A stretch of 64,000 bases of DNA from Candidatus Aenigmatarchaeota archaeon (GTDB taxonomy: Archaea; Aenigmatarchaeota; Aenigmatarchaeia; QMZP01; QMZT01), in assembly GCA_043808015.1 (NCBI GenBank), contig JAZDFI010000029.1, positions 7,003 to 71,002 on the forward strand, written 5' to 3'. The position numbers and the translations under genes are program-made. Under the pieces are notes generated by a model. That model worked only from the letters and a program-made list of their open reading frames with translations. It had not been told where the DNA came from and made no database searches. This document shows positions 5,417-50,496 of the stretch, piece after piece; within the stretch, counting starts at the first letter, position 1; every line of letters begins with the position of its first letter.

Positions 5417-7138
5417 CTACAAATCGGTTCTCTGAACGATGGAATCCTTTATATCTACATTCTTGTCTTTTTTCCTGATTTTTTCCCCTATTTTTGAACG
5501 CTGAACGATCGAATCTATAATGTTTATGGTCTCGCTGACCTCGATTTTCTGTATTTCAGTCGCTAGCGACATGGCTATGACTGTGTATTTGACTATGTCG
5601 GCAATCTTTTCTGATAGATTTTCAAGCTCTTCATCCTTGGATGAGTAGAGTTTGAAGGCGACGTGAACAAGACTATCGTCTTCTCGTAGCACGCAGGTAA
5701 GAAGGTAAGTGTCGCCGTCGCTGGACTCGCCGGAGAAAAGGTATAGCCTTTCATTGTCGAACTCATGCGACGCGACAGCCGCAAAATCCCTGCATTCCTC
5801 AAGGACGTGGCTCGAAACAGTCTTTATGTCCGTCCCTTTTAGTGTGTATCCTTTTATTGTCGACTGCAGGTCCGCCTTCATTTTCACGAACTCGTGCTCG
5901 CTTATTTCTTTCGGATGTATGAAGTTCTGCAGGAATCTTCTGAACTTCTGGGTATAATTGAGCTTGTCCATGTTCTCTTTGCTGGTCTGGCCGTTGCTAG
6001 CGGCTGTACGCGCCGTCTGCAGCGATTCCTCCAATACGAAAGGCTCGATATCCTTGATGAAATTCCTGCCGCGCAGGTCGTGGAAGCTTATCGCGGGCTT
6101 GAGCATCGTTTTGCCCGTGACCATCGGCAGTATCTTGAAAACGAAACCCTTCTCCTCGCCGGGGTTTATCTTTTCTATCTCGTAGCCGCTAACAGGGTCG
6201 ACTTTTATTTCCACCGGGAAATTCATGACCAGGTTCACGTCGCTTATGGGTTGCCTTGAGTTGTTGGCCACGGAAACCACGAAATATGACTTTTTGCCGA
6301 CTTCCAATCGCTCCCTAAGATACGGCCTCACATCGATGTTAGGGATGACGCACATTCTCGGCGGCTCTATCTCGCTTTCCATGCGCTCGCCCCTGGCGTT
6401 TTTCCATTCAACCTTCGAGTAAAACGGCTTCACGTTTTCGGATGACGTGACCATGTAACTGAGCGCTCTGGACTCGCCAGGCTTCATGGAAGCGACGCTT
6501 TCGAGAACGTTCGCCTTTACGCCAAGTATCCTTATATCACTGAGCGTCTCTTTCGTATCGTTTCTTAGTGCAAGCGTTACTTTGACTTTTTCGCCTTCCT
6601 TTACCACGTCGCTCTCGCAGGTATGGCTTATGCTGAGATGCGGGGCGATTCTGGCGATGTCATGTATCCTTTTTTCTATCTCCTCGCTGTATTCGATGTC
6701 GAGTGATTTCCTGTAATTTTTGATTGCCAAGTTGTAGTCGTTCATCTTCTCGGCCGCCTGCCCCATCAGGTTGTAGCACCACTGCACCGCATATAGCGAG
6801 CCTGCGCGTGTGAAATAGTCTATCGCCTTGGTTGCGAAGTTCATGGTGTTGTTGAAGTCATTGAAAGAGAACGAGTAAAACGCAGCGGACTTGTATGCCC
6901 AGCCCGTGTTGAAATCCTTGCCCAGCTTGAGGTTGCACTGCACCTCCTCAAGGCAGAAGTCGACGGCTCGTTTGTCGTTTACCGATTCAGCCAGCCTGGC
7001 GGCCTCCTGATAGACTTCGGCTGCTTCAGCGCACTTGCCCGACTTGGCCATTTTTTCCGCTTTTTTGGCCAGGCTTTCCACTTCTTTCGTCGTTTTTTTC
7101 ACTTCTTTCGCGTTGGCATGGGGCTGTTGCTTGTCCAT
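5417..7138 (-). CDS. Hypothetical 573-aa protein: N-terminal TPR/alpha-solenoid-like region, two Ig-like beta-sandwich modules, C-terminal alpha/beta domain; third gene downstream of the ESCRT-III and Vps4 genes
   Basis: No catalytic motif recognised. Same strand as the Vps4 gene and 38 nt downstream of it. Confidence 0.5.
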   Translation of the reverse strand: MDKQQPHANAKEVKKTTKEVESLAKKAEKMAKSGKCAEAAEVYQEAARLAESVNDKRAVDFCLEEVQCNLKLGKDFNTGWAYKSAAFYSFSFNDFNNTMNFATKAIDYFTRAGSLYAVQWCYNLMGQAAEKMNDYNLAIKNYRKSLDIEYSEEIEKRIHDIARIAPHLSISHTCESDVVKEGEKVKVTLALRNDTKETLSDIRILGVKANVLESVASMKPGESRALSYMVTSSENVKPFYSKVEWKNARGERMESEIEPPRMCVIPNIDVRPYLRERLEVGKKSYFVVSVANNSRQPISDVNLVMNFPVEIKVDPVSGYEIEKINPGEEKGFVFKILPMVTGKTMLKPAISFHDLRGRNFIKDIEPFVLEESLQTARTAASNGQTSKENMDKLNYTQKFRRFLQNFIHPKEISEHEFVKMKADLQSTIKGYTLKGTDIKTVSSHVLEECRDFAAVASHEFDNERLYLFSGESSDGDTYLLTCVLREDDSLVHVAFKLYSSKDEELENLSEKIADIVKYTVIAMSLATEIQKIEVSETINIIDSIVQRSKIGEKIRKKDKNVDIKDSIVQRTDL

Positions 7139-7176: not shown

Positions 7177-8277
7177 TCAGACGCTGATGTTTTCCTTCCA
7201 GTCATCGTATCTCTTTATCAGTTTCTGGCTCACGGTCTTCTTTATTTTTGAAAGCGCGTATGTAAAATCATCCTTAGTGAGCGGCCTGTATTTAATGGCG
7301 TATTTCTCCACCTGTGTCGCCGTCATATCTTCGAGATTCGGGTTCTGCTCGCGTATCATGAACATTATGGCCTCGCGGCATATGCTGGCTATGTCACGGC
7401 CGGAATAACCCTCGCTCATTTCTGCCAGTTCGTCGATGGTTATGCCTGACAGCGACGAGCCTTTAACGTGTATTTCGAATATCTTCCTTCTCGAATCGAC
7501 GTCCGGCAGCGGCACGTATATCTTTCTCTGGAACCTCGATATCATCGCGTCATCGAGATCCCATGGCCTGTTCGTGGCGGCCATTATTATGACCTTTTCG
7601 TCCTTCTTGGTCGAGAAGCCGTCTATCTCCACGAGCAGCTGGGATATGACCCTTCTCGTCGCTTCGTGGACGCCGGCTTCCCTGGTGATCATTATCGAGT
7701 CGAACTCGTCCATGAAAATAAGCGAGGGCTGGTTTTTTCTTGCCTTTTCGAAAAGCGCGCCTATGATCTTCTCAGATTCGCCATAATATTTGGAGAGGAG
7801 AGTCGATGTCTTCGCCTCGAAGAAGTTCGCCTTCAGCGTGTTGCTGGCCGCCTTGGCTAGCAGCGTTTTTCCGGTTCCCGGAGGCCCGTAAAGCAGTATC
7901 GTGCGCGGCACCTCCACAAACGCCGGCTTGCCAGCAATCATGGGCAGGATTATCGACTCCCTTACCTCGCGCTTCGCTTCCTTTAGACCGCCTATGTCTT
8001 CCCACTTCGTCGTGGGCTTTTCGTAAACTATCATTTTGTCTATTGGCTGTTCGGACTTCTTTCGAGCGCTACTGACGCCCTCGAACTGGTCAGCAGAATG
8101 GAACAGTGATGCAGCTTCGCCTCTGGGGGATATGTAAGCCAGGCGCCTGTAAATAGATGCGGCGACCTTGTAGTGTGTTGTCGCCTGCTTTGATTTACCG
8201 TCCGCTTCAAGCTTCCTGGCGGTGTCCAGTTCGTGCTGGAGCTGCTGTTTCAAAAGCGACTCTCTCAGTTCGCCCAT
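7177..8277 (-). CDS. cdvC: Vps4-like AAA ATPase (MIT domain plus AAA); CdvC-like
   Basis: N-terminal MIT-like three-helix region. Walker A LLYGPPGTGKT, Walker B IFMDEFD. The SRFQRKIYVPLPD motif is typical of the meiotic-clade AAA proteins, Vps4 included. Length of 366 aa is like archaeal CdvC. Confidence 0.8.
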   Translation of the reverse strand: MGELRESLLKQQLQHELDTARKLEADGKSKQATTHYKVAASIYRRLAYISPRGEAASLFHSADQFEGVSSARKKSEQPIDKMIVYEKPTTKWEDIGGLKEAKREVRESIILPMIAGKPAFVEVPRTILLYGPPGTGKTLLAKAASNTLKANFFEAKTSTLLSKYYGESEKIIGALFEKARKNQPSLIFMDEFDSIMITREAGVHEATRRVISQLLVEIDGFSTKKDEKVIIMAATNRPWDLDDAMISRFQRKIYVPLPDVDSRRKIFEIHVKGSSLSGITIDELAEMSEGYSGRDIASICREAIMFMIREQNPNLEDMTATQVEKYAIKYRPLTKDDFTYALSKIKKTVSQKLIKRYDDWKENISV

Positions 8278-8296: not shown

Positions 8297-8917
8297 TCAC
8301 TCTGTGTCCTCTTCCTTCTTTTCCTCTGTTATCGACTTCGCTTTCTCGCCGGCCATGCGCATCGCCGTCTCTTCATCCACCTTTTCCAGGTCGTTTATGG
8401 CGTGCATGAGCTCCTGCGATTCCTCGTCGACGAGCATCTGCTGCTTGCCGAAGACCCGTTCCAGCTTTTCCTTCACCTTATCCAGACGGCCTTCTTCCAA
8501 CGCTTCTCGTACATCGGTATCGGTAAGCACTTCGCTCAGCCTGTCCATGTCCGTGTCGAGAATTTCCTTCGCTATCGACGAAATTTTCTCGCTCTTCTCG
8601 CGCTGTTTCATGGCCTGGACAAGCAGTAGAAGCTGCAATTCGCGGAGAAAATGAGATGCTTCAATCTGCTTCGTGCGAGACTCGAGACTAAACGCCTTGA
8701 TTTTCTGCACGTTAAGCATCTTGAGTGTATTGGGCTGGCCCTTCGACTCGAGCATGAGCTTCTGGATTTTTTCGGCAATACCCCTGAGGTCGTCGGAAAT
8801 CCTCTCTACTTCCTTTTCTATTTTGAGGCGTTCCTTGAGCAAATCATTGTCTTTTATGGAAAATATGTCCTTGCCGAATTTCGATTTGATGAATTTCTTG
8901 AAATCCACCGCTCTCAC
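8297..8917 (-). CDS. cdvB: ESCRT-III / Snf7-like protein (CdvB-like)
   Basis: 206-aa all-helical, charge-segregated coiled-coil protein with an acidic C-terminus. It sits 19 nt upstream of the Vps4 gene on the same strand. Confidence 0.55.
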   Translation of the reverse strand: MRAVDFKKFIKSKFGKDIFSIKDNDLLKERLKIEKEVERISDDLRGIAEKIQKLMLESKGQPNTLKMLNVQKIKAFSLESRTKQIEASHFLRELQLLLLVQAMKQREKSEKISSIAKEILDTDMDRLSEVLTDTDVREALEEGRLDKVKEKLERVFGKQQMLVDEESQELMHAINDLEKVDEETAMRMAGEKAKSITEEKKEEDTE

Positions 8918-8953
8918 CTTGATATTTATTTTGACTGTTTTAAATATAAAGGT

Positions 8954-11900
8954 ATGAAGCGCGGTTTTCTGCTATCGCTCGACGCAATTGTGGCGATAAC
9001 TTTGTTGCTGTCGGTATCGACTTTTTTGGCGGGAATTTCGTTCACTTATTCGACGCCCGAGTTACGCTATCAGCGCTATTACTATGCCGGCAAGGATATC
9101 GCCGCATTGTTTCAGGAAGCCAGAATCAGCTCGGTATCGGACGTCGTCAACCTGACCAAATACAACCTTACACAAGAAGAGATGAACAGGACCATTCTCG
9201 ACGTTATCGGCTCTTTCTGGGCCGGCGGCAACATGAGTGTCGCTAGTAATCTGACAAGGGACATTTTCAGCGAAGTTTTAGGAAACACTGGTCTCAACTA
9301 CGAGGTTTCTTTCAACGACGAAACGATATATGCCAGCGACGACTCTTATTCGGATTTTGTGGCCAGGCTGTCGACTGTTGTATCAGGTTATGAAAAAACG
9401 AAACCTGTCAACGGATATCTTGCGAAGGTTTACGTAACGAAAGTCTCGAAAACCAATTCGGAGTTCATATATTTCGGCGGCTACGAGGGCGACGGTAACA
9501 TAACAAAGGTCATCACGCTTCCTGTCGACGTCAACGTGACCGGCGCGTATCTTGAAATGAACGTCGGCAACAATTTTTTGCTTTACATCAATGGCCAGGC
9601 TGCAGGAACGTACGTCAAGAGCGCCGTAAATTTTTCGGCGGACAACTGGACCATATGTTCAAAAACGAATCCGTCATACTGCTCATACTTTGCGGCCGGC
9701 CAGAACATTATACAGCTGAACTTCACAACAAACCAGAGCACATACGTGGGCGGCGGCTATCTTAAGGTCACTTACAAAACCTCCGAGCTTACGGAATACA
9801 CGACCAGCGGCAATGCCAGTGATTACTATGAATTTCCCGGCATACGCGGCATTATCAACCTTTATTCGTCTTTCTACGTGCCGGGCACGCTTAAAAACAT
9901 GAGTGCAAGATTGCATTACAACAACAACCTCAGCCTCAACAACCAGGGCGTGCCAGTCTATTTTGTTATTGGTTCAAAAGAAATATACAGGAGCAACGCC
10001 ACAGGGGAGCATGTAATCGATATCCCTGAAAAAAACATATCCGATGCGTTCGGAGGAAAAGCGAATCTCACGGAAAAGCTCAGCAACGCGACCATACCCA
10101 TACGCTTCGGCACGGATACCTTCGCCTTTACAAGCGGTGAGGGAACGAGCGACTCTATTCTAATAACAGACATTTCAGGCAGTATGGGCGGCTCCACGGC
10201 CTCATGTGACGTGCAGACTACCGCATGCGAGCACACGGACTGCAACACGGCCAGCGGCTGCCAGAACTACAGGATAGACGTGGCAAAGGACGTGGACAAC
10301 GATTTCGTGGATAACATCCTCAACTACACCGGCAACATGCTCGGCCTTATCAGCTACTCGACCACCGTATATGACAGCCACCCGCTGAGCAATGACAGCT
10401 CTTCACTCCATGCGGAAATAGACGGTTACACACCAACAGATTATACCTGCATATCATGCGGCATCCTCATAGCGACGGACATGCTCCTCGATGCGGCGGT
10501 AATAAATGAAACCATAAAACCGAATTCCACGTGGCTGTATAATGTCAGCTTCCCGTCAAGCGAGCCGCCCGTCGTGAACGGAAGCGAGTGGACATGGCAA
10601 AATTACAGCGATGATGGCTGGTCGTCCGGACAGTCAATACTTGGTTTCGAAAGTCCATCATATTTCCCCAACATAAACACGAACATAGGCAACAACGGCG
10701 GCAACTATTATTTCAGGAAGCACTTCAATTTCACCAAGGCGATGATAGACTCGGCGGACCTTTACGTGCTCTCAGACAACGCTGCCGAAATATACCTCAA
10801 TGGCCATCTTGTTTACAACGATACGTCCGAGCACAACGCCAGATACTGGAACAACTACTACGATGTCCTTGATGAAAATTTCGAAAGCTACTATGCCAGT
10901 GGCGACAACAGGCTTTATTCTACCGAAATAAACCGCACGCCTGGCTACTGGATTGTAGACGGAACGCCAGACGCTGACAAGGAAGTGTTTATCATGGCCA
11001 ACTACGCGGGTTACCCGGCTCATAAAGGGACGGACGTCATGGTCTTCAGGGACATGGACGCATACGGCTCGGTGGAAACGCATCTCAATCTCTCCGGAAA
11101 GGCGAACCTCACGCTTTCATACTGGTGGTCGCTGGGCGACGATGAACCGGACAGCGGGGAATATTCCAATATGCGCATATGGGACGGCAGCTGGCACACC
11201 GTGAAAACTTACAATGCGAGTCACGTTTACGGCGACTATCACAAGGAAACGATAGACCTGAACGCATATAACATGGTAAACAACTTCACTGTAAGATTCG
11301 GCTCAAGGTCGAGCAGCGATACTGAGAGGTTTTATGTCGACGATGTCCGTATCGCTGGTTCGGCAACGCACATAGAAACATCATATTTCAATGACGGAGA
11401 AAACGTCGTTGCCGTGAGACTCAGGAACAACGACGCTGTCGCGGCGAAGTTCGACGCGGCGCTCAACATAACAATGAAGCGATACAAGGCGATGCTGGTG
11501 ATGAGCGACGGGCTCGCCAACAGACCCCTGGGCGTCAATGCGACCGAAGACGCCGTGAGCAAGGCCTGCGATGCGAGAAGGCGCGACATCCAGACGTACA
11601 CGGTCGCCTTCGGCACACAGGCAGACGGAGAGACTCTCAAAAAAATAGCGTGCTGGAACTGCACCACAGGCTCATGGATTCCTAACTGTGACAGGTTCTA
11701 TAACAGCACTGATGCCGAGGAGCTGCAGCAAATATACAGGTCAATCGCAAGAGATATTGCTAACGCCAGCTACGCCGGACAGCTTTTCAATTTCACGGGT
11801 AACGTATCCATGAACAACATCCTATACACGGACTCTTACATATATTTTGATTACACGCCGGTTGTCAGGACCCCCGAATACGGTGAGATAACCCTTAATT

Positions 11901-12697
11901 TCGAATCCCCGCGCCTGGGCGCATCCACAGGCGATATTATGACGACCGATAACGAGACAGGAACAAAGGAGGGCTGGTTCTTCATACCGGGTGACACTGA
12001 AGTCTCGACGGAAGTGCTTGATTCCAAAATAACCTCTTATTCCTCGTACTATTGGACGGACAGGCTTTGGGTCAACTCGTCCAGCACGCCTAATCAAAAC
12101 TGGACGCGCGTATACTGGCTCGCAAATTACTCAAGCGACTACGAAAAACTGGGAGACCCGTACATAGTGCAGATACCGCCCAACATTCTTACAGCGAACG
12201 GCAACAATTCGTTTAAAATAGGCACCGGGCTTCGTCCGACTCCGCTGTCCGGAGGCAAAGGCGCCTCGCCGGACGACAGGGTGATTTACACGCTGGGCAT
12301 AAAAGGCATAAGCCTCACCCAATACAGCGATGTTTTTGCCAAGGCTAAAGGTTCGACTGTCACGATATATTACGATGCGAACGGCGATAACGTCGCGGAC
12401 AGCTCTTCTGTGGTGGAAATCGGACCGGACCCTGACGACAATTTCGACCCCATGAACGACTCGATAGATAATGGTTTTATGAAGCTCATTGACAGGATGA
12501 ATTTCATGAGCGATGTTAATTCAGGCGTGGTCGACTTAAATTACACGGCATCGGGACCAAGCGGCACCGGCGACGGCTCTTCAGGCAACCCGGTCGACCT
12601 GGAAATAACAGAAGACGTGAATTTCAATTCTGATTTCATATCCCAGATATCATCCATGTGGGGTCCTGCGATAATGGAGGTAAAAATATGGGGATGA
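8954..12697 (+). CDS. Giant (1247 aa) class III signal peptide (type IV pilin-like) surface protein with a vWA domain interrupted by a PA14-like insertion; putative glycosylated adhesin
   Basis: True start is the ATG at 8954: MKRGFLLSLDAIVAITLLLSV has the archaeal prepilin pattern of [KR]G followed by a hydrophobic helix with Ser and an acidic residue. The ORF extension upstream of 8954 overlaps cdvB antisense and looks spurious. vWA MIDAS motif DISGSMGG sits near 10169 and the MLVMSDGLAN...YTVAFG part about 440 aa later. Between them is a PA14-like stretch GNYYFRKHFNF...LYVLSDNAAEIYLNGHLVYND. There are dozens of N-x-S/T sequons. Confidence 0.7.
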   Translation: MKRGFLLSLDAIVAITLLLSVSTFLAGISFTYSTPELRYQRYYYAGKDIAALFQEARISSVSDVVNLTKYNLTQEEMNRTILDVIGSFWAGGNMSVASNLTRDIFSEVLGNTGLNYEVSFNDETIYASDDSYSDFVARLSTVVSGYEKTKPVNGYLAKVYVTKVSKTNSEFIYFGGYEGDGNITKVITLPVDVNVTGAYLEMNVGNNFLLYINGQAAGTYVKSAVNFSADNWTICSKTNPSYCSYFAAGQNIIQLNFTTNQSTYVGGGYLKVTYKTSELTEYTTSGNASDYYEFPGIRGIINLYSSFYVPGTLKNMSARLHYNNNLSLNNQGVPVYFVIGSKEIYRSNATGEHVIDIPEKNISDAFGGKANLTEKLSNATIPIRFGTDTFAFTSGEGTSDSILITDISGSMGGSTASCDVQTTACEHTDCNTASGCQNYRIDVAKDVDNDFVDNILNYTGNMLGLISYSTTVYDSHPLSNDSSSLHAEIDGYTPTDYTCISCGILIATDMLLDAAVINETIKPNSTWLYNVSFPSSEPPVVNGSEWTWQNYSDDGWSSGQSILGFESPSYFPNINTNIGNNGGNYYFRKHFNFTKAMIDSADLYVLSDNAAEIYLNGHLVYNDTSEHNARYWNNYYDVLDENFESYYASGDNRLYSTEINRTPGYWIVDGTPDADKEVFIMANYAGYPAHKGTDVMVFRDMDAYGSVETHLNLSGKANLTLSYWWSLGDDEPDSGEYSNMRIWDGSWHTVKTYNASHVYGDYHKETIDLNAYNMVNNFTVRFGSRSSSDTERFYVDDVRIAGSATHIETSYFNDGENVVAVRLRNNDAVAAKFDAALNITMKRYKAMLVMSDGLANRPLGVNATEDAVSKACDARRRDIQTYTVAFGTQADGETLKKIACWNCTTGSWIPNCDRFYNSTDAEELQQIYRSIARDIANASYAGQLFNFTGNVSMNNILYTDSYIYFDYTPVVRTPEYGEITLNFESPRLGASTGDIMTTDNETGTKEGWFFIPGDTEVSTEVLDSKITSYSSYYWTDRLWVNSSSTPNQNWTRVYWLANYSSDYEKLGDPYIVQIPPNILTANGNNSFKIGTGLRPTPLSGGKGASPDDRVIYTLGIKGISLTQYSDVFAKAKGSTVTIYYDANGDNVADSSSVVEIGPDPDDNFDPMNDSIDNGFMKLIDRMNFMSDVNSGVVDLNYTASGPSGTGDGSSGNPVDLEITEDVNFNSDFISQISSMWGPAIMEVKIWG

Positions 12698-13380
12698 GTA
12701 AAGCGAAAGTTTTGTTTGTGTCTGCTGTTGCGTTTTCAATTTTGATGTTGTTTATGAGTCATGCTACCGCTCAGGAGGATGAAGAAAAAATAGTGTGCCT
12801 GGTTTACTTCACAAGCAACGGCTGCGGGGACGAGTGCAGGTTCACTGATACTTTCATGAGCGGCCTGATGCGAGAATACGCAGGAACTCTAGTGTCGATA
12901 ATTTATTTCGTTGATGATAGCGCACAAAACAGCGTCGTTTTCAATGCGTACAGGTCGACATATAATCTGCCGGCCAACGTCCCCATAGTTTTGTTCGGCA
13001 AAGACGATTATCTGCAAGGGAGGAGTGACATATACGAGGGTACTGAAAAAAAAATATTCGATTTTCTGCTGGCCAACGGCACCAACTGCCCGCTGGACTC
13101 GGGCTTTGTTGCACCGAGCCAGCTCTCGCCTGGAAGCGTCCCCGGCGCGCAAATCCTGAGAATGCCCCCAGACAAGGAAGCTGTAAAAAATGACAGCATA
13201 GGGACGATTTCCGAAGATGATGATGTCATGAATGGCAATGACAGCGGACCCGGAGATATCCTGGCGCTGAACGAACCCATGAAAGAAAGCGTCTTCTCCC
13301 TTGTTATTATAGGAATTGTTCTGATAGTGGTGGCCGCCATCATTATTTATGTGTGGACTAAAACGCAGGAAAGTTTATGA
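12688..13380 (+). CDS. Secreted, C-terminally membrane-anchored protein (signal peptide, Cys-rich, Asn-sequons)
   Basis: GGAGGT lies 11 nt upstream of the ATG at 12688. The ATG overlaps the stop codon of the adhesin gene. N-terminal signal peptide and C-terminal TM helix plus short tail. Confidence 0.5.
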   Translation: MGMSKAKVLFVSAVAFSILMLFMSHATAQEDEEKIVCLVYFTSNGCGDECRFTDTFMSGLMREYAGTLVSIIYFVDDSAQNSVVFNAYRSTYNLPANVPIVLFGKDDYLQGRSDIYEGTEKKIFDFLLANGTNCPLDSGFVAPSQLSPGSVPGAQILRMPPDKEAVKNDSIGTISEDDDVMNGNDSGPGDILALNEPMKESVFSLVIIGIVLIVVAAIIIYVWTKTQESL

Positions 13381-13757
13381 AAAATACGATAAAGGCTCTC
13401 ATTTTTCTTTCGCTAGCGCTAGCCGAGACTCTCGCTCTGATCTGGTTCTCGCTGCAGCCGTCAGCAGCTTTCGTCCCTGGCGTTGGCTTCCTGCGACTTG
13501 GCGACCTGGAGCATTTAGCGGCTTATGCTGTGTATGGCTTCATGTGGTCTGCTTTTCTCCTCACTTACAAAAAAAAGCCCGGTGTCGCGATGGCGATTCT
13601 GCTGTCGCTGGCGATAGGTTCCGCGATCGGAGCGCTGTGCGAAACACTGCAGTTTTTCGTCCCCACGCGCGTGGCCGACCCGCTTGACTGGGCAATCGAT
13701 TCGGCAGGCTCGCTTTGCGGAGCGGCTGCGGCCGTTAAAGCCAAAAACCTTTTTTAA
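13377..13757 (+). CDS. VanZ-like small membrane protein
   Basis: Four-TM pattern with WFSLQP...AAYAVYGFMWSAFL resembling the VanZ family. Start overlaps the previous stop (ATGA). Confidence 0.45.
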   Translation: MKNTIKALIFLSLALAETLALIWFSLQPSAAFVPGVGFLRLGDLEHLAAYAVYGFMWSAFLLTYKKKPGVAMAILLSLAIGSAIGALCETLQFFVPTRVADPLDWAIDSAGSLCGAAAAVKAKNLF

Positions 13758-13797: not shown

Positions 13798-14295
13798 ATG
13801 AAAACTCCAATATGCGGCATTTGCCTGAATTCGGACATGCTCTGCATGGCGTGCAATAAAAAGCTAGATGAAGGCATCATCAGCGATAGCGACGTTCGCC
13901 TGGCCCGGGCAGTCAAAACGCTAGCATCCACTTTCAAAGTTCTTGACAACATAACCATAAAAAAAGTCATGGAAGGCAGCACCATCATTTTAATGCTGTG
14001 CGGCAGGGGTGACAGGCCGAAGCTTGTGGGGAGGGAAGGTGTCGTGATAAACCGTCTTTCTAAAATGATGGGAAAACCCGTAAGGGTCGTAGAGGAGACG
14101 GAAGACCTGAAGGACTTCATAAAAAATGTCATACATCCGGTCCCGCTAGAAGGGATTAACGTGGTTTACAGCAACGAAGGCGAAACGCTGAAGGTGCTAA
14201 TCCCGCGCAACAGGAATTTGCCGCTGGCGGAGGCGACATTCAGGGAAATAATCAAGATGGTTTTCGGCAGGAATGCGGTCGTCGCAAAAGCGTGA
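13798..14295 (+). CDS. KH-domain RNA-binding protein with N-terminal zinc ribbon
   Basis: CGICLNSDMLCMAC zinc-ribbon-like motif. Type II KH GxxG (LVGREGVVINRLSKMMGKPVRVVE). Confidence 0.5.
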   Translation: MKTPICGICLNSDMLCMACNKKLDEGIISDSDVRLARAVKTLASTFKVLDNITIKKVMEGSTIILMLCGRGDRPKLVGREGVVINRLSKMMGKPVRVVEETEDLKDFIKNVIHPVPLEGINVVYSNEGETLKVLIPRNRNLPLAEATFREIIKMVFGRNAVVAKA

Positions 14296-14305
14296 AGTGA
14301 TATTC

Positions 14306-16078
14306 ATGGGCAGAAAAAGAATAGTCGTTTGTGACAGGGAATTGTGCAGGTTCGAGAAGTGCGGCTATCGCTGCATAAAATCATGTCCTGTCAACCGTTC
14401 CGGTGAAGAATGCATAGTGAAAGAGGCGAATGGCTATCCGGCGTTCAACGAAGAACTCTGCATCGGCTGCGGCCTCTGCGTCAAGGCATGCGACAAAGCC
14501 GGCTTCAGCGCCATAGCTGTCGTCAACCTTCCGAAAGAGCTTGACGAAGACCCGATACACAGATACGGCAAAAATCAGTTCGCTCTTTACCGCCTGCCGA
14601 TGCCAAAGAAAAACATGGTCATGGGCCTTATAGGCCCTAACGGGGTGGGCAAGACCACTGTGCTTAACATACTATCTGGAAATCTCAAACCGAACATGGG
14701 AACTTTCAGGGGTAAAGTGGAGTGGCGTGCCATAATCGAGAAGTTCAAGGGGACGGAGCTGCAGGACTATCTGCAGACGCTCGCGATGAACGGATTGAGT
14801 GTAGGTTACAAGCCGCAGCATGTCGATTTTATTCCAAAAATGTGGAAAGGCAAAGTGATAGACCTGCTCAAGAAGCATGGCGGCTATGAAAATGTCGCCG
14901 GGCGTCTGGGCATAGGTGAAATGTTTGAAAAAGAAATAAAGACGCTTTCCGGCGGGGAGCTGCAGCTGCTAGCGGTGGCCGCTGTGATTTCAAAGGAATA
15001 TGACTTTTATTTTTTTGACGAGCCTTCGAGCTATCTCGATGTACAACAGCGCTTGACTGTCGCCAGAGAAATACGGGAGCTGGCCAAGAAGCACGAGGTG
15101 ATGGTAGTGGAGCACGACCTGGCGATACTCGACTACCTGAGCGACCACGTGCACATACTTTATGGCCAGCCCGGCGCCTTCGGTGTCGTCTCGAATCCAT
15201 ACGGGGTCCGCGTAGGCATAAACACGTATCTGGAGGGTTTCATAAATGAGGAGAACGTCCGCTTCCGCGACAAACCCATTCTCTTCTCAAAAACCGCGAG
15301 GTCAGTATCCAAGGACCGGCTTCTTGCTGAATTCACCGGGTTCGAAAAGAAATTTGGCCAGTTCAGCATAAGAACTGAACCTGGCGAGATTTACAAAGGC
15401 GAGGTGATCGGGATTCTCGGGCCCAACAGTATAGGCAAGACTACATTCATCCGTATGCTCGTGGGCGAACTGAAAGCCGACAAAGGCAAGCCTGTCGAGA
15501 TGGCGCTATCTTACAAGCCACAGAGGCTCATTTTTGAAGGAGAAAACCTTGATGCGAGGGAATACATAAGGAACGCCATTGGCGACAAAGTCGATGACAC
15601 CGAATACAAGCGGATGCTTTCTGCGCTGAACATAGAGCGCAACATGGATAAAAAAATGAAAAACCTTTCCGGCGGCGAATTGCAGGCGGTGTTCATAGCT
15701 TGCGCCATGGGTAAAGAGCACGACATCCTGCTGCTCGACGAACCTTCCGCTTTTCTTGATGTGGAGCAGCGCCTGAGGGTGGCAAAGATAATAAGGTCTC
15801 ACGTAGAGGGACGCGAGACTTCAGCGTTCGTCGTCGACCACGACCTTCAGCTCATCGATTCCGTTGCTGACAGGATTATCGTTTTCGACGGCGAACGCGG
15901 CGTGAGCGGCCTTGGAAAAAAGCCGTGCTCGCTGAACGACGGCATGAATCGTTTTCTCAAAACGCTGGACATAACTTTCCGCCGCGACCCGCAGACGGGA
16001 CGCGCCCGCGCGAACAAGCCGGACTCGCAGAAGGACAGGGAACAGAAGGAAAACGGGCAATATTATTACTCTGATTGA
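14306..16078 (+). CDS. abcE1: ABCE1 / RNase L inhibitor (ribosome recycling factor)
   Basis: N-terminal 4Fe-4S ferredoxin motifs (CIGCGLCVKAC) plus two ABC ATPase domains with Walker A GPNGVGKTT and GPNSIGKTT, and LSGGELQ signatures. Start chosen at MGRKRIVVCD. Confidence 0.9.
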   Translation: MGRKRIVVCDRELCRFEKCGYRCIKSCPVNRSGEECIVKEANGYPAFNEELCIGCGLCVKACDKAGFSAIAVVNLPKELDEDPIHRYGKNQFALYRLPMPKKNMVMGLIGPNGVGKTTVLNILSGNLKPNMGTFRGKVEWRAIIEKFKGTELQDYLQTLAMNGLSVGYKPQHVDFIPKMWKGKVIDLLKKHGGYENVAGRLGIGEMFEKEIKTLSGGELQLLAVAAVISKEYDFYFFDEPSSYLDVQQRLTVAREIRELAKKHEVMVVEHDLAILDYLSDHVHILYGQPGAFGVVSNPYGVRVGINTYLEGFINEENVRFRDKPILFSKTARSVSKDRLLAEFTGFEKKFGQFSIRTEPGEIYKGEVIGILGPNSIGKTTFIRMLVGELKADKGKPVEMALSYKPQRLIFEGENLDAREYIRNAIGDKVDDTEYKRMLSALNIERNMDKKMKNLSGGELQAVFIACAMGKEHDILLLDEPSAFLDVEQRLRVAKIIRSHVEGRETSAFVVDHDLQLIDSVADRIIVFDGERGVSGLGKKPCSLNDGMNRFLKTLDITFRRDPQTGRARANKPDSQKDREQKENGQYYYSD

Positions 16079-16080
16079 GG

Positions 16081-17022
16081 TCACTCAAACTGGGTTGGCT
16101 GGCTTTCGACTTTAACTGAAACTATTTTGTATATAGAGAAAAGCATGAACGCCGCCCCGAGCCACTGAACCAGCGATAGCGTTTTGCCGTAAATCGCGAA
16201 TTCGAGTATTATCGCGGTAATGGGGAACGCCAGCTCGTATATTGTCGATTTTGATGCAGGCACGTGCTTGAGGCCGTAATAATATATGAATATCGCCACT
16301 CCACCCGTGGTGAAAGCTATGAGCAGTAAAGTCGCGATGTTCGCCGGCTCAACTGCCGCGAATTTGTCGAAACGATTAGTAGCCGTTATAATCAGCAGCA
16401 AGATTAATGTGGTTATGCCGAACCTGAGGTACGTTCCAACACGAAAGTTCACTTTGTGTATCGCCCTCTTGCTGAATGTCGTCGACGAGCCGAACGCAAA
16501 CGCTGCAACCAGCGAAAGACCGGCGGCGATTAACGTCTTGTTTTCTAGGCTCAGCACGGGCTGCTCGAAACCGAACGTCAATAGATAACTGCCAATCAGG
16601 GCAATGGCAGCCCATATGAAAAAGTTCTTCTGCGGTTTTTCTTTGAGCACGACAGCCGCGAGCAGGATGGCAAAAATCGGCTGCAGTTTTTGCAGCAGAA
16701 TCACGACTGAAAGCTGGATAAAACCGACGAAGAACAGCGCCGACGTTATGGCCATCGTGCCTATCGCGCCACCGAAGAGGCCGACCCACGCGAACGAACC
16801 CCAGTCTCTGGGCTTTAGTTTTTTCAGCTCTTTGCGCTCGATGAACAAAAACACTGCCATGTAGCAAAATGCTATCGCATGCTCGATGAATACGACTATC
16901 GCGACGTCAAGATGGTAAAGCGACGGACGGAGCAAAACGCCGTCGATGCCCCATAACGCCGCTGCGAACGCTATAGCAATCGCTCCGATTACGGGCATGG
17001 ATTTTTTGTCAAATGAAAACAT
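16081..17022 (-). CDS. EamA/DMT-family transporter (10 TM)
   Basis: Duplicated five-TM EamA-like topology. Start trimmed to MFSFDKK. Confidence 0.6.
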   Translation of the reverse strand: MFSFDKKSMPVIGAIAIAFAAALWGIDGVLLRPSLYHLDVAIVVFIEHAIAFCYMAVFLFIERKELKKLKPRDWGSFAWVGLFGGAIGTMAITSALFFVGFIQLSVVILLQKLQPIFAILLAAVVLKEKPQKNFFIWAAIALIGSYLLTFGFEQPVLSLENKTLIAAGLSLVAAFAFGSSTTFSKRAIHKVNFRVGTYLRFGITTLILLLIITATNRFDKFAAVEPANIATLLLIAFTTGGVAIFIYYYGLKHVPASKSTIYELAFPITAIILEFAIYGKTLSLVQWLGAAFMLFSIYKIVSVKVESQPTQFE

Positions 17023-25313: not shown

Positions 25314-25367
25314 GATAGAATATTGTTTTATGTTTTAATTTAATTAAAACACGGCCAACTAATGTAT

Positions 25368-26561
25368 ATGAAAGGGCAGTTTTATTCTGCAATCGCAATA
25401 CTCATCGCCATTCCCATCGTCGTATTCGTCACCCTTTATGTGGCCACCCAGGGCGGCGAGGATGGCATCTACCAGGCGATAGTCGCGGACCAGATACACC
25501 AAGTGGAATCGGGAATAGAAAACGATTTCGGCAAGGCCGTCGTGACGTCGGGAAAACGCGCCATGATAGCCGGCGACGACTATGTCGTCATGAGCGGCAA
25601 AGCGCTTTCCGACGCCGCGGGCGGCGTGAAAGAACTGATGCAGTACGGCACGATAGAAGGCAACGAAAGCATACTCATGCACAATAATACCATATCCAAC
25701 TGGACCAGCAAAATACTGGCCATACCGTCAAATTTCGACATCAACATAACTTACTGGGGCCTCGACGTCGCCGGTTCAGGTGCATTTCACATCAAAGCTT
25801 CTGCGAGAATAAACGTTTCTGTCGCTGATGAGGTCGGCATCGCGCGCATAGACAAAATAGGAGAGTATTATGAAGCTCTTATTCCGATTGAGGGGGCCGA
25901 AGATCCCGTATTCACCCTGAAAACAGGCGGCCTTGTCACCAGGACGGTCAAGCTTTCACCATATCCTTACAGGGCAAAAAAACTGGTGATTGGCGGCCTT
26001 AACTCGAGCGGCAACTGCACCGGCAACTTCACAATGAACAAGAGCGACTGCTCGTCAAAAATACTGGTTGCGGAAAACACGAGCGGTGTCGCTTTATCAT
26101 GCTTTTCCGGTTTCATAATAGAAACATCCATGAACCTCAGCTCCGATTCGGACTGTTACGTCACGGGCAACGGCAACGCAGTTGAATCTATAACACAAGC
26201 CCTCGCGGAAACGAATTACAATAAAATATACATAGACGGTCCGACAAAGGCGGCATGGCACCTGCCCATACGCGATGATATAGACGAGAAATATTATTTC
26301 AGCGGTGGTGGTCCGTTGTTTCTGAAGCGACTGGAAGGCAATCTCAACCAAACGCCCGATGGTCTGGAAACTTTTGTGAACCTGCCGGAACTGGAAAGCA
26401 ACCAGATTCCGATAAAGCAGAACGTCATCTCCGTGGATTATATATATTTTGGGGGACAAGACTATATTGGGTATCCGGTGAGGGGTTTGCAGGGCTGGTT
26501 CAGGCTTAACAGGACTTTTACGGACAGGTATAATCTCACCGAGTTGTGCAATGGTTGTTGA
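25368..26561 (+). CDS. Secreted pilin-like Cys-rich glycoprotein (class III-like signal peptide)
   Basis: MKGQFYSAIAILIAIPIVVFV N-terminus, KGQ then hydrophobic helix. Many N-x-S/T sequons and Cys pairs. Confidence 0.5.
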   Translation: MKGQFYSAIAILIAIPIVVFVTLYVATQGGEDGIYQAIVADQIHQVESGIENDFGKAVVTSGKRAMIAGDDYVVMSGKALSDAAGGVKELMQYGTIEGNESILMHNNTISNWTSKILAIPSNFDINITYWGLDVAGSGAFHIKASARINVSVADEVGIARIDKIGEYYEALIPIEGAEDPVFTLKTGGLVTRTVKLSPYPYRAKKLVIGGLNSSGNCTGNFTMNKSDCSSKILVAENTSGVALSCFSGFIIETSMNLSSDSDCYVTGNGNAVESITQALAETNYNKIYIDGPTKAAWHLPIRDDIDEKYYFSGGGPLFLKRLEGNLNQTPDGLETFVNLPELESNQIPIKQNVISVDYIYFGGQDYIGYPVRGLQGWFRLNRTFTDRYNLTELCNGC

Positions 26562-27414
26562 TATGAAAAAAGGGAAAGATGAAGTAACATCCACGGAAAC
26601 AAAAGATAAAGCTACAGGCGAAAATACAAAGGGTTCCGGGAAGAACGATATTCTGGAAAAGAAGTGGGAGAATCTTGTGAAAGAGTCCACAAAGGATTCT
26701 AAACAGACCAAAGACGCGGGCACGAAAGGCGAAGCGCTGAAAGGGGATTTGAAAAAAGAGGTGCCAAAGCACGAAAAACCGGCCAAAGAATCACCTGCAA
26801 AAAAAGAAGCTGCTCGAAAAAAAACAGAGTGGACAGAAGATGATGGGACGGACGATGATGAAAAATCGACCTATAATAAAAAGAAAGGCGTAATAAAAGA
26901 CCATCTGGAAACCGATGTAGATAAACTCTACGAGCTCGCCAGGGACAGGGGAATAATAAAAATAAACGAAGCTGCAAAATTACTGAAAATAGATATAGAT
27001 CAGATCGAAGAATGGGGCAGGATACTGGAAGAGCACAAACTGGTGCGATTACGTTATCCGCCTGTCGGTGAGCCGGTTCTGATACTGAAAAAATTCATGA
27101 CTGACACCGAAAAAATAAAGGAGATAAAGCAAAAAATAAAACTGAAACCGAGGAAGAGGGTGTTCATGATAAACATTATCATACTCGCCTGCTTCATCGT
27201 CGCCGTGTCATTCTATACCATAAGATTCGGGGCCATACGCATCACTTACACCCAAGCTTATTTAGCGGCGGCCGTAATTATTATAATAGCCGGGGTTTTG
27301 ATTTTCAAGTTCAAAATAAAGAAAAGGGTAAAAAAAGATGATAAAAAAAATACCGAGACTTCCTCAGAAGGATCCCAAGGGGACCATGGAAAGCCAGCCA
27401 GAAAACCGGCCTGA
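26551..27414 (+). CDS. Lys-rich protein with internal wHTH-like segment and two C-terminal TM helices
   Basis: Disordered K/E-rich N-terminus, then KLYELARDRGIIKINEAAKLLKIDIDQIEEWGRILEEHKLV, then TM helices. Overlaps both neighbours. Confidence 0.4.
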   Translation: MVVDMKKGKDEVTSTETKDKATGENTKGSGKNDILEKKWENLVKESTKDSKQTKDAGTKGEALKGDLKKEVPKHEKPAKESPAKKEAARKKTEWTEDDGTDDDEKSTYNKKKGVIKDHLETDVDKLYELARDRGIIKINEAAKLLKIDIDQIEEWGRILEEHKLVRLRYPPVGEPVLILKKFMTDTEKIKEIKQKIKLKPRKRVFMINIIILACFIVAVSFYTIRFGAIRITYTQAYLAAAVIIIIAGVLIFKFKIKKRVKKDDKKNTETSSEGSQGDHGKPARKPA

Positions 27415-28897
27415 GGAAAGAAAAATAATAGAGGATTACAGCATAGATTATCAGAATGTATCGGCCTCCGTTAAAATATATCACGACCCGCAGGAATACG
27501 TTCCTATTTATGACCTCAAATACCCCAAGATAGAGGAAGCCACATGGGCGATTCTCGACTCCATCAGGGAAAAAATAGTCACCGAGCTCGCTTTCAGGAC
27601 GGACGACATTCTGAGCACCGAAGAAACCGGGGACGTCAAGAAAAAATTCGTGCAGAAGGCCACCACCCTTATTCATGCGGAACTGCCAAGCCTGTCGAAA
27701 AACGACGTCGGCATACTTGTCGGCATTCTTTCCCAGGAATCGCTTGGCCTTGGCCCGATAGAATTCATGCTTAAAGACAATGACCTCGAAGAGATAGTCA
27801 TAAACAACGCCAAGGAACCCATATGGGTTTATCACAGGACTTACGGCTGGCTGAAGTCGAATGTTATACTGAGCGACGAAACCAAAATATATAATTATTC
27901 CGCACAGATAGGCAGGAAGGTCGGGACCCAGATAACAAATCTCAATCCCCTCATGGATGCTTATCTGACGACAGGCGACAGGGCCAACGCGACACTTTTT
28001 CCGATATCGTCAAAGGGCAACACGTTAACGATAAGAAAATTCGCCAGAAGGCCATGGACCATAACGGATTTCATAGAAACGAACACGATAACCCCGGAAG
28101 TCGCGGCATTTCTCTGGCTGGCTATACAGTTCGAAATGAACATCGTCTGCACTGGAGGCACGGCTTCGGGCAAGACGTCTTTCCTCAATGTATTGTGCAT
28201 GTTCATCCCGCCGAGCCAGCGCATCCTATCCATCGAGGATACGAGAGAAATCCAGCTTCCGCCATTCCTCCACTGGGTCCCCATGACTACGAGGCCGCCG
28301 AACATTGAAGGTAAAGGCGAGGTCACAATGCTTCAACTCATGATAAACGCGCTTAGAATGCGCCCCGACAGGATGATAGTCGGCGAGATACGCCGTTCGA
28401 AGGAAGCAGAAGTCCTGTTCGAGGCTATAAACACAGGCCACTCTGTTTACTCCACGCTTCACGCCAACACCAGCGAAGAAACGCTCAAGCGTCTCATCAA
28501 CCCGCCCATAAACATTCCCATGTCGCTTCTCACGTCGCTCCAGCTGATAGCGGTCATGCACAGGGACAGGCGCAGGAGAATAAGAAGGGTTCTTGAGATA
28601 ACCGAGCTCATACCTTCCGGTGGGCTGGACGAAATGAAAATCGAACTGAACAACGTGTTCAGATGGATACCATCCAAGGACCAGATAGTCGAATGGGGTA
28701 AATCGAACCGCGTCCTCAATGACATCAAGCTATTTTCCGGGATGGAAGATAATGAAATAAAGAAAAATCTCGAGGAAAAAAAGAGCATTCTGATGTGGCT
28801 GGTAAAAAACAAAGTCAACACGATAGATAAAGTTGGCAGTACGATATCCGATTACTATAAGGACCAGGAAAAGATTCTCAGAATGATAAAGAAATAG
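27386..28897 (+). CDS. FlaI/TadA/GspE-family secretion ATPase (type IV pilus assembly ATPase) 1
   Basis: Walker A VCTGGTASGKTSFLN, then SIEDTREIQL and GEIRR motifs typical of archaeal FlaI/TadA. Start trimmed. Confidence 0.8.
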   Translation: MESQPENRPEERKIIEDYSIDYQNVSASVKIYHDPQEYVPIYDLKYPKIEEATWAILDSIREKIVTELAFRTDDILSTEETGDVKKKFVQKATTLIHAELPSLSKNDVGILVGILSQESLGLGPIEFMLKDNDLEEIVINNAKEPIWVYHRTYGWLKSNVILSDETKIYNYSAQIGRKVGTQITNLNPLMDAYLTTGDRANATLFPISSKGNTLTIRKFARRPWTITDFIETNTITPEVAAFLWLAIQFEMNIVCTGGTASGKTSFLNVLCMFIPPSQRILSIEDTREIQLPPFLHWVPMTTRPPNIEGKGEVTMLQLMINALRMRPDRMIVGEIRRSKEAEVLFEAINTGHSVYSTLHANTSEETLKRLINPPINIPMSLLTSLQLIAVMHRDRRRRIRRVLEITELIPSGGLDEMKIELNNVFRWIPSKDQIVEWGKSNRVLNDIKLFSGMEDNEIKKNLEEKKSILMWLVKNKVNTIDKVGSTISDYYKDQEKILRMIKK

Positions 28898-28898
28898 G

Positions 28899-29480
28899 CT
28901 ACCTGTACATCGTCTGGGTGTTCTCAAACCTGGGCACAAATATCCTGTATTTGTCCTTGTCTTCGAGCTCCTCTAGAATTCTCTTTATAATCATTTTTTC
29001 CGGGTCGGGCAGCATGCTGACACGCTTCTTCATGTCTTCAAAACTCGCGAATGCGTTTTCTTTTCTCGCGGAGAGTATTTCCCATAGATGTTTCTTGCCT
29101 ATGCCGGGAAGCAGTTCCAGCTGATGGAGTCTGGTTGTTATGGGCCCGGCCTTGTTAAAGAAATCCAGAAACTTCTGCGGCGTGGATTTAACTAAGCTCT
29201 CGACTATGTCCGATACCTCTTCTTTTGATGCGGTCGTCAGGTCTTTGTAATCTATTCTTCTTTTGATGAACTTGACCTCGTCCCTTTTGCCGTCGCCAAT
29301 ATAAACAGGGGTACCGACTTTCAGGTAAACTCCTTCCCTGACTATCACCTCGAGCAGTGAAAAATACAGCTCCCCTATAACCTGGGCCACGGGTTGGGAA
29401 ACTTTCATGCCGTAATAGCCGTGCGGAAGGTAATCAAGCACTATCGCCTTCTCATCCTTCTTGATTTCTCTCTGAATCAT
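28899..29480 (-). CDS. COG1491/DUF655-family nucleic-acid-binding protein (OB fold plus HhH)
   Basis: LELLPGIGKKHLWEILSAR helix-hairpin-helix. Lies in the conserved archaeal L21e-RpoF-DUF655 neighbourhood. Confidence 0.55.
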   Translation of the reverse strand: MIQREIKKDEKAIVLDYLPHGYYGMKVSQPVAQVIGELYFSLLEVIVREGVYLKVGTPVYIGDGKRDEVKFIKRRIDYKDLTTASKEEVSDIVESLVKSTPQKFLDFFNKAGPITTRLHQLELLPGIGKKHLWEILSARKENAFASFEDMKKRVSMLPDPEKMIIKRILEELEDKDKYRIFVPRFENTQTMYR

Positions 29481-29526
29481 CCTTCCGCTCCCTTTTTTAT
29501 AAAGTTAGAATGCGTCTTTAAAAGCG

Positions 29527-29853
29527 CTACTTGTTGTCTTTTATAATTTTGATTATTTTTTTCTTGTCGTCCTCTGTCAAAACTAGTCTGTCGTTGGCAA
29601 ACAAAACCCTGATGTCGTTCTGGTTGTCAGGCAGGAAATTTATTATGGTGACTATGTGCCTCTCTTTGAGCTTTTCTATGCCCCGGAGTTCCTCCACTAT
29701 CTTCTCGTATTTTTTGTCCGGGAGCTTGCAGAATTTTCTAAGGTGGTCCAGAGCGTTCTTCTGCTCGTAAACAAGCTCCTTCTTCTTCTCGCTTTCAGAA
29801 AGTATTTTTTTGGCGTCTGTCCAGCTCGTCACTTTTTCGTCTTTAACATTCAT
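29527..29853 (-). CDS. rpoF: RNA polymerase subunit Rpo4/F-like protein
   Basis: About 108-aa helical protein immediately downstream of L21e, as in the conserved archaeal gene order. Confidence 0.5.
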   Translation of the reverse strand: MNVKDEKVTSWTDAKKILSESEKKKELVYEQKNALDHLRKFCKLPDKKYEKIVEELRGIEKLKERHIVTIINFLPDNQNDIRVLFANDRLVLTEDDKKKIIKIIKDNK

Positions 29854-29861
29854 GAAACCAC

Positions 29862-31314: not shown

Positions 31315-31338
31315 AATACCATCTTGTCCGCCTTGTTT

Positions 31339-32861: not shown

Positions 32862-32885
32862 AAAACCACGAGAGCGCTGCGGGTC

Positions 32886-32901
32886 TATATATTTAAATAC
32901 G
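32886..32901 (+). promoter_or_regulatory. TATA/BRE-like element upstream of the SRP RNA
   Basis: TATATATTTAAATAC about 20-30 nt upstream of the predicted RNA 5' end. Confidence 0.4.
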
Positions 32902-32917
32902 GCCTCTCGGATTATTA

Positions 32918-50456: not shown

Positions 50457-50496
50457 CGCTCTTGCGCCCTTTTATTTACCTTTCACAATTCTTTTT

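Follow-up and report, generated by a model that had tools for sequence, protein, structure and literature searches.

A giant vWA protein with a prepilin-type N-terminus, a probable type IV pilin-like surface adhesin of DPANN archaea

The stretch of DNA analysed here (the window, 64,000 nucleotides of a Candidatus Aenigmatarchaeota contig) carries a gene for a 1247-residue protein in which a class III (prepilin-type) signal is joined to a von Willebrand factor A (vWA) domain and predicted lectin-like modules. In our judgement this vWA protein is probably a modular type IV pilin-like surface adhesin, acting as a minor pilin or tip subunit, of a DPANN archaeon. Gene context is the strongest evidence and the decisive one: outside the subclade to which the window belongs, 49 of 51 loci place the vWA gene within type IV filament gene sets, the two exceptions being short contigs.

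The open reading frame (ORF) enclosing the gene spans 8651..12697 on the plus strand. The ATG at 8954 was taken as the start because the reading frame 5' of it runs into a conserved gene on the minus strand and almost every homolog begins at the equivalent methionine, yielding 1247 residues and the N-terminus MKRGFLLSLDAIVAITLLLSV. The ORF of this length starting with MKRGFLL, described in an earlier note made from the sequence, is thereby borne out, and the motifs quoted there were located at residues 406-413 (DISGSMGG), 583-591 (GNYYFRKHF), 603-623 (LYVLSDNAAEIYLNGHLVYND), 847-856 (MLVMSDGLAN) and 882-887 (YTVAFG). The product is 100% identical to V1648_03960, a hypothetical protein of a Candidatus Aenigmatarchaeota metagenome-assembled genome at NCBI. 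Hydropathy analysis of the 1247 residues revealed a single hydrophobic segment (aa 1-32) and no C-terminal membrane anchor. The dozens of N-glycosylation sequons mentioned in the note amount to 46 N-x-S/T sites, compared to 18.9 +/- 3.8 in 1000 composition-matched shuffles; this excess, with the one N-terminal hydrophobic segment, argues for an extracellular location. The gene and the regions of its product are as follows.

8954..12697 including the stop codon, plus strand: gene for the vWA/lectin protein with class III signal, 1247 aa
8954..9049, plus strand, aa 1-32: class III-type signal, MKRG and the hydrophobic H-domain FLLSLDAIVAITLLLSV..., Asp at +6, putative cleavage after Gly4 (family frequencies, hhalign, modelled helix)
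9050..10138, plus strand, aa 33-395: family-specific N-terminal region (AlphaFold2 model)
10139..10489, plus strand, aa 396-512: N-terminal half of the vWA domain, with D406-x-S408-x-S410 and T498 of the metal ion-dependent adhesion site (MIDAS)
10490..11479, plus strand, aa 513-842: insertion within the vWA domain, all-beta, probably two jelly rolls (galactose-binding-domain-like or resembling a carbohydrate-binding module, CBM)
11480..11773, plus strand, aa 843-940: C-terminal half of the vWA domain, with MIDAS D852 (MLVMSDG; PRK13685 match)
11774..12694, plus strand, aa 941-1247: conserved C-terminal region, without a C-terminal membrane anchor

Scanning a single genome for each GTDB species gave 453 loci that encode relatives of the vWA protein, and 865 clusters (50% identity) reach E<=1e-30; databases name the family only "hypothetical" or "VWA domain-containing protein". 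The surroundings of the best 80 of the 453 loci were surveyed at species level with hidden Markov models (HMMs) over 10 kb on either side. These loci are almost all from DPANN lineages (Aenigmat-, Woese-, Nano-, Micr-, Nanohal-, Parv- and Altiarchaeota). Genes linked to type IV filaments lie within 10 kb of the vWA gene in 57 of the 80, in agreement with the filament link proposed in the earlier note. The canonical gene order is pilA-like, pilB-like, pilC-like, vWA, partner, lysine-rich (K-rich) protein, ATPase, platform, platform. The pilC-like, vWA and partner genes occur in this order in 27/80 loci, all six families occur together in 18/80, and the partner gene follows the vWA gene within 2 kb in 44 of the 62 loci with enough flanking sequence. 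At the loci of distant homologs there are a T2SSE ATPase gene, two genes of T2SSF type, and three small genes followed by the vWA gene and another large gene, with frames that often overlap. In every DPANN phylum sampled, the partner gene and both terminal regions of the vWA protein are conserved, regardless of the variable insert described below.

The small upstream proteins fall into three orthologous families, each of which has class III-type N-termini. Gln at +1 and Glu at +5 (Epd/EppA type) mark two of them, and the third, pilC-like, reads Q-x-x-S-x-D, with the S-x-D found in the vWA protein. Pfam matched one to Class_IIIsignal (PF04021, E 4.7e-5) and another to DUF7266 (about 5e-6); DUF7287 was also matched. 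Partner proteins are 320-680 aa long and begin with [KR][GA] and a hydrophobic stretch without an acidic residue. As a separate observation, a full operon of the DPANN type was also seen in bins labelled "uncultured Methanosarcinales archaeon" (loci L072, L077, L084 and L088), which could reflect an episymbiont mis-binned with its host or genuine presence outside DPANN.

The N-terminus of the vWA protein resembles those of the small pilin-like proteins. Positional frequencies around the putative cleavage site were computed for 247 of 258 family members: position -2 is K/R in 229/247 and -1 is G/A in 241/247, +1 is hydrophobic (Phe in 115/247), +4 is S/T in 228/247, +6 is Asp in 240/247 and +7 is Ala in 207/247. 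A very short leader, a few residues long, precedes the H-domain, which measures about 20 aa. The window protein begins MKRG/FLLSLDAIVAITLLLSVSTFLAG (slash, putative cleavage site), that is, with a short charged leader ending in [KR]-[GAS] directly before the hydrophobic H-domain. Substrates of archaeal prepilin peptidases are characterised by G/A/S at -1, a charge at -2 and an H-domain after the site (PMC4371748), and at the level of sequence the N-terminus of the vWA family agrees with this description. Moreover, the 29 N-terminal residues of the family align with the small pilC-like family with an hhalign probability of 82.6%. The class III-type N-terminus recognised in the earlier note is therefore kept family-wide, and its likeness extends to small pilin-like proteins encoded directly upstream in other genomes.

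The body of the protein contains a vWA domain that profile searches recover only in pieces. In the intact protein, Pfam detected the N-terminal half alone (VWA_2, aa 402-514, 21.4 bits, below the gathering threshold (GA) of 27) and NCBIfam the C-terminal half alone (PRK13685, aa 848-936). When aa 513-842 were removed in silico, Pfam VWA scored 31.3 bits (GA 23.8) in an alignment running across the junction and VWA_2 scored 28.8 (GA 27). Homologs of 850-950 aa align to query residues 1 to ~512 and ~843 to 1246 with no gap on the homolog side; other homologs carry inserts of differing length at the same point of the vWA domain. Two independent tests, the ungapped shorter homologs and the threshold-passing score after in silico removal, thus demonstrate one vWA domain split by an insertion of ~330 aa. 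This confirms the reading of DISGSMGG as the MIDAS of a domain whose remainder follows some 440 residues later. PF00092 was found in 17/35 relatives (best E 1.1e-10). Across 35 diverse relatives D406, S410 and T498 are invariant and D852 is nearly so; judged from the alignment, the conserved MIDAS motif (D406, S408, S410, T498, D852) is complete, and metal binding is predicted. Searched against the PDB, the family profile gave only two sequence matches: 4rck, a membrane-anchored vWA protein ("membrane spanning protein"), and 6tnj (E 1.5e-6), the vWA domain of the fimbrial tip subunit Mfa5.

The isolated insertion (aa 513-842) had no Pfam match at E<=1. Its AlphaFold model, built from a 36-sequence alignment with a predicted local distance difference test (pLDDT) score of 82.9, is all-beta. 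Foldseek matched it to CBM4-2, CBM22, CBM61, CBM16, a gingipain K2 adhesin domain and MAM domains, and aligned tandem CBM22-1/CBM22-2 over ~300 columns. Based on this model, the insertion most likely consists of two galactose-binding-domain-like jelly rolls. The PA14-like carbohydrate-binding insertion proposed in the earlier note had to be abandoned: no PF07691 profile match was obtained, neither list of fold matches contains a PA14 structure, and the fold is a galactose-binding-domain-like or CBM jelly roll. Carbohydrate binding by the modelled insertion is putative, as the jelly-roll fold also occurs in protein-binding modules, MAM, reelin and the ephrin receptor among them. At the same site of the vWA domain, relatives carry Laminin_G_3 (E 6.8e-32), DUF2341, 3-keto-disaccharide-hydrolase-like or GH59 C-terminal lectin modules, or nothing. 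As read from these domain assignments, this position of the vWA domain is a hot spot at which cassettes of lectin type (LamG/ConA-like and others) are exchanged.

Several components of the canonical operon were also found in the window, where the operon is broken: the partner, ATPase and platform genes are found 12-22 kb downstream, with the partner, K-rich protein and ATPase 12.7 kb beyond the vWA gene.

25362..26561, plus strand: partner homolog, 399 aa, class III-like N-terminus MKG-QFYSAIAILIAIPIVV (39% identity, E 1.6e-88, to the Nanoarchaeota gene directly after the vWA gene)
26551..27414, plus strand: K-rich protein with a C-terminal transmembrane (TM) segment (just upstream of the ATPase in 29/80 loci)
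27338..28897, plus strand: FlaI/TadA-type type IV filament ATPase (T2SSE), ortholog of the vWA-operon ATPase (53% identity to that of locus L005, 61.5% to that of L010)
33254..34132 and 34110..34991, plus strand: two adjacent T2SSF genes matching the N- and C-terminal halves of FlaJ, a split platform

The ATPase also matches a TadA-family model (E 1.6e-57). It is separated from the half-FlaJ genes by ~4 kb of minus-strand housekeeping genes (28899..32969), and a gene for a CBS-domain protein (35236..36330) follows the split platform; CBS proteins flank the ATPase in L005 as well. The K-rich protein, which could be assigned to no family, has a conserved helix-rich core besides its C-terminal TM segment, with homologs at 14119..14742 of L010 and 14697..15182 of L011, and could be an unrecognised accessory component of the filament system. 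Independently of these genes, the window contains a second type IV filament set (49531..54377, plus strand), made of two tandem PilA/UpsA-type pilins (49531..50013 and 50022..50456), both with a KGISP motif and both passing TIGR02537, and a second FlaI-like ATPase (52689..54377); no platform gene was identified adjacent to this set.

A number of observations weigh against a filament subunit, and some of them concern the N-terminus itself. The vWA protein has no match at E<=0.1 to the curated pilin N-terminal models Pfam PF07790 (Pilin_N), PF04021 (Class_IIIsignal) and TIGR02537, so that the profile check suggested in the earlier note came out divided: the [KR]G-type context is there and the Pilin_N or Class_IIIsignal match is not. 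Residue +1 is usually Phe, unlike the residues of characterised archaeal pilins. The window ORFs scanned did not include an A24 prepilin peptidase (the ORF with multiple TM segments at 38509..39534, considered as a candidate, was rejected as a UbiA prenyltransferase). The missing profile matches, together with flanking genes in the window that are not pilus genes, speak for a vWA glycoprotein that is Sec-secreted or signal-anchored in the ordinary way, has nothing to do with type IV filaments and carries a signal resembling that of prepilins by coincidence. We find this scarcely credible, since [KR][GA] stands directly before the hydrophobic stretch in more than 90% of 247 diverse members, and the context census disfavours it: embedding among pilin-like genes, ATPase and platform is the rule outside one subclade.

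Further points of this kind come from the modelled fold and from the location of the gene. A pilin folds as an alpha1 helix of ~53 residues packed on an antiparallel beta-sheet head. The AlphaFold2 model of aa 1-405 (92-sequence alignment, pLDDT 83.2) has helices at 2-31 and 35-55 with a kink near Pro35, a small helical bundle up to ~109 and then two beta-sandwiches (166-276 and 296-387), for which the fold search gave weak matches to BcsB, the GH2 N-terminal sugar-binding domain and PNGase F jelly rolls. A long kinked helix with a helical bundle and jelly rolls is not the canonical alpha/beta pilin head, and no pilin structure is among the 50 Foldseek matches listed for this model. Within the window, the vWA gene and the pilus genes are not co-operonic; over 12 kb and unrelated genes separate them. 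Searches of the 64 kb by tblastn, HMMs and regular expressions found neither members of the three families of small pilins nor the QAAMEY-type candidate for a major pilin that is present at L005 and L007.

The main rival of the tip-adhesin reading draws on the same features. According to it, the vWA protein is a cell-surface, non-filament adhesin or a bindosome-like protein, with a class III-type N-terminus that would serve only for membrane insertion or anchoring, with or without cleavage; it would stay at the cell surface or in a short pseudopilus and bind ligands there, comparable to the Sulfolobus bindosome or to TadG/BatA-type vWA proteins. No pilin head could be made out in this very large protein, its vWA sequence is most similar to membrane-anchored BatA-type vWA proteins (PRK13685; 4rck), and in the window lineage its gene stands apart from the pilus operon and accompanies genes for two membrane proteins. 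Large proteins that have class III signals without being classical pilins are also known, for example in the bindosome (PMC4371748). We nevertheless hold this to be rather unlikely. The position of the gene inside a pilin-like block in 49 of 51 loci outside the subclade, with frames that often overlap, is the signature of a structural or tip component, and the conserved Asp at +6, common to the adjacent small pilin family, suggests helix-helix assembly contacts over a simple anchor.

One last point against an adhesin concerns the insertion, which within the subclade sharing it evolves only slightly faster than the rest of the protein (pairwise identity 0.53-0.59 versus 0.55-0.70), so there is no residue-level sign of an arms race. 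As a further alternative, the vWA protein might be an assembly or priming factor, forming with the partner an initiation complex or an envelope-traversing cap for filament growth through the S-layer, its vWA domain and jelly rolls making contacts within the complex or with the S-layer in place of binding host ligands. Such a role is consistent with the conservation of the N- and C-terminal regions and the partner irrespective of the insert. Bacterial minor pilins do prime assembly, deletion of pilB in S. sanguinis abolishes piliation (PMC8179133), and according to a 2026 census of archaeal type IV filaments (TFF), priming of the cell wall may be the role of some large TFF-associated proteins (10.64898/2026.04.22.720090). 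Priming does not exclude adhesion, however, as tip complexes do both, and the swapping of lectin cassettes at one site along with a conserved MIDAS is more typical of ligand-binding adhesins. A priming role without adhesion appears quite improbable to us.

The tip-adhesin reading suggests the following course of events. The precursor would enter the membrane via Sec, and a PibD-type prepilin peptidase would remove the MKRG leader by cutting after Gly4, so that the mature protein would begin with the hydrophobic helix. This helix would assemble with pilin-like subunits, namely the partner (25362..26561 in the window) and, in other genomes, the three small pilins. The FlaI-type ATPase (27338..28897) and the split FlaJ-type platform (33254..34991) would build the filament, and the subunits would serve as its priming or tip complex; this step is suggested by the operon structure of relatives and by analogy with the minor-pilin tip complexes of bacteria. 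The heavily N-glycosylated ectodomain of ~135 kDa would be displayed at the filament tip or the cell surface. There it would bind ligands on the host-cell surface through the metal-dependent vWA MIDAS and the lectin-like jelly rolls, of which two would be the conserved N-terminal beta-sandwiches and two those inserted in the vWA domain. Cassette swapping at the insertion site would tune ligand or host specificity. In the Aenigmatarchaeota subclade, the vWA gene has left the pilus operon and is coupled in translation to genes for a thioredoxin-like membrane protein and a VanZ-like protein.

Compared to known systems, the family appears to be an archaeal version of an established design, the modular pilin or pilus-tip vWA adhesin, and not a new kind of system. 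The closest functional precedent, by analogy, is the tip-located PilABC complex of S. sanguinis, in which PilB (a pilin with a vWA domain) binds host proteins and PilC is a pilin with Ig-like and ConA-like lectin domains (PMC8179133, PMC9934059); TadG and PilY1 are looser parallels. Like the vWA protein, PilB and PilC have a class III signal to which a bulky adhesive module is grafted (a vWA domain with a MIDAS, functional in PilB, or a lectin), are encoded in the pilus locus beside small minor pilins and are predicted to fit only at the tip. They differ in being bacterial, about 3 times smaller and provided with a recognisable pilin head. In the archaeal protein, the vWA domain and lectin-type modules share one polypeptide, with lectin modules inside the vWA domain, and outside the vWA domain there is no detectable sequence relationship to PilB or PilC.

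TadG of bacterial Tad/Flp pili likewise has an N-terminal hydrophobic pilin-like segment followed by a vWA domain, and its locus also encodes the small pseudopilins TadE and TadF, a TadA-type ATPase and the two platform proteins TadB and TadC. The N-terminal jelly rolls, insertion and C-terminal domain of the DPANN protein have no counterpart in TadG, and no match to Pfam TadE or Tad_N was found in the DPANN protein; what TadG itself does, as anchor or at the tip, is not settled (PMC4858521). The PilY1/PilC adhesin of bacterial type IVa pili is also very large, tip-associated and dependent on minor pilins, and in some species PilY1 has an N-terminal vWA domain. Unlike the vWA protein, PilY1 is not a pilin (it has an ordinary signal peptide) and ends in a beta-propeller, a domain that was not found here. 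A MIDAS vWA domain is also displayed at the pilus tip by RrgA of the S. pneumoniae sortase pilus, where protruding "arms" flank the MIDAS (PMC8179133), and by Mfa5 of the P. gingivalis type V fimbria; their assembly systems are unrelated to type IV, which implies convergence in design.

Among archaeal systems, the split platform and the small Q+1/E+5 pilins are shared with the Methanococcus maripaludis Epd pilus and TFF "System 1", which comprises an ATPase, two platform genes, Q+1/E+5 pilins and EppA and is reported in DPANN (PMC4371748, 10.64898/2026.04.22.720090). No vWA component is described there: the 2026 census reports adhesin-like and galactose-binding class III proteins and uses "vWA" 0 times in its main text (10.64898/2026.04.22.720090). 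Sulfolobus bindosome proteins are solute-binding, have neither vWA nor lectin modules and showed no detectable homology to the vWA protein. In the literature searched, archaeal vWA proteins near pilus loci are described only as intracellular ArnB-type regulators (PMC4858521). Literature searches combining DPANN or archaea with vWA or pilin returned no described DPANN or archaeal pilin-vWA fusion; the author of the earlier note likewise knew of no archaeal counterpart of this size. The C-terminal 307 aa, conserved family-wide, had no Pfam match and no PDB sequence match.

The genes next to the vWA gene in the window are the following.

12688..13380, plus strand: gene 2, with a Sec signal peptide, a probable thioredoxin-like ectodomain, an acidic linker and a C-terminal TM anchor
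13377..13757, plus strand: gene 3, small VanZ-like membrane protein (PF04892 33.2 bits, GA 30.1; NF037970 36.9, cut-off 20)
8297..8917, minus strand: acidic coiled-coil protein of 206 aa, whose divergent gene begins 36 bp away from the vWA start and adjoins the vWA gene in 26/80 loci
7177..8277, minus strand: Vps4/CdvC-like AAA ATPase (Pfam AAA and Vps4_C; NCBIfam CdvC 233.8 bits, below cut-off)
5417..7138, minus strand: 573-aa TPR/MIT-like and CARDB-like protein, divergent to the vWA gene

Overlapping stop and start codons, reported earlier for the two downstream genes, were found at both junctions: the vWA TGA (12695-12697) lies beyond the gene-2 ATG at 12688, 10 nt before the end of the ORF, and the gene-2 TGA (13378-13380) overlaps the gene-3 ATG at 13377. 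A GGAGGT stands 8 nt upstream of the gene-2 ATG. The VanZ-like identity of the third gene holds, with scores above both the Pfam and the NCBIfam cut-offs. The three-gene adhesion module envisaged in the earlier note stands only in part. Gene 2 comes after the vWA gene in 17/80 loci and the VanZ gene in 11/80, all of them in a close Aenigmatarchaeota subclade, for which the module is retained; across the family it was rejected, the conserved neighbours there being the partner, downstream, and a set of three small pilin-like genes on the upstream side.

Gene 2 encodes the motifs VC-x-VYFT...C-x2-3-C (C-x3-C here, C-x2-C in three relatives, the first Cys not being invariant) and a conserved VP-x-[VI]L[FM] loop. 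Its family profile gave weak PDB matches to dozens of thioredoxins (E 0.015-1.5), and Pfam Thioredoxin matches 5/15 members below GA (best E 0.0019), so that a thioredoxin-like ectodomain is plausible from its sequence. Speculatively, gene 2 and the VanZ-like protein might help to fold or handle the 12-Cys ectodomain. At locus L001, in a complete Aenigmatarchaeota genome (CP070809.1), a gene for a 756-aa secreted protein lies between the vWA gene and gene 2 (13834..16834), and gene 2 is called as two ORFs (63 + 152 aa), which may represent a frameshift or a pseudogene.

On the other side, the 36-bp divergent intergenic region (8918..8953) is AT-rich and contains two TATA-like elements, ATATTTATTT (~28 nt before the ATG) and TTTAAATA; these sequences would be compatible with a near-leaderless vWA transcript. 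An intermediate group of loci has the 206-aa gene upstream of the vWA gene and the partner downstream. Synteny is what ties the 206-aa gene to the vWA gene, possibly nothing else, and an ESCRT-III-like identity of its product was rejected, with no support from Pfam or from its profile against the PDB. Elsewhere in the window, the minus-strand gene at 44497..46041 encodes 514 aa with a Sec-type signal peptide; its product matches nothing in Pfam and may, from its sequence, be another surface protein.

Taken together, the observations can be joined in a wider reading, which we put forward tentatively and with some doubt. The vWA family would be the host-recognition tip adhesin of a DPANN-wide type IV filament with a five-pilin priming or tip complex, made of two small pilins with Glu at +5, one with Asp at +6, the giant vWA protein with Asp at +6 and the acid-less partner as terminal cap. 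Exchange of lectin cassettes in one vWA loop would set the host envelope that is recognised, and in the subclade the adhesin would have escaped the operon and acquired extracytoplasmic thioredoxin-like and VanZ helpers.

Little is known of how DPANN archaea, which are tiny symbionts, locate their hosts and stay attached to them, and the vWA family is a good candidate for a host-gripping device. It has the modules that mediate adhesion at bacterial pilus tips, a MIDAS vWA domain and lectin-type jelly rolls, and the site at which cassettes are swapped could explain host specificity. The family would extend to archaea the "modular pilin" concept, surveyed so far only in bacteria (PMC8179133), and it offers concrete testable targets for cultivable DPANN-host pairs.

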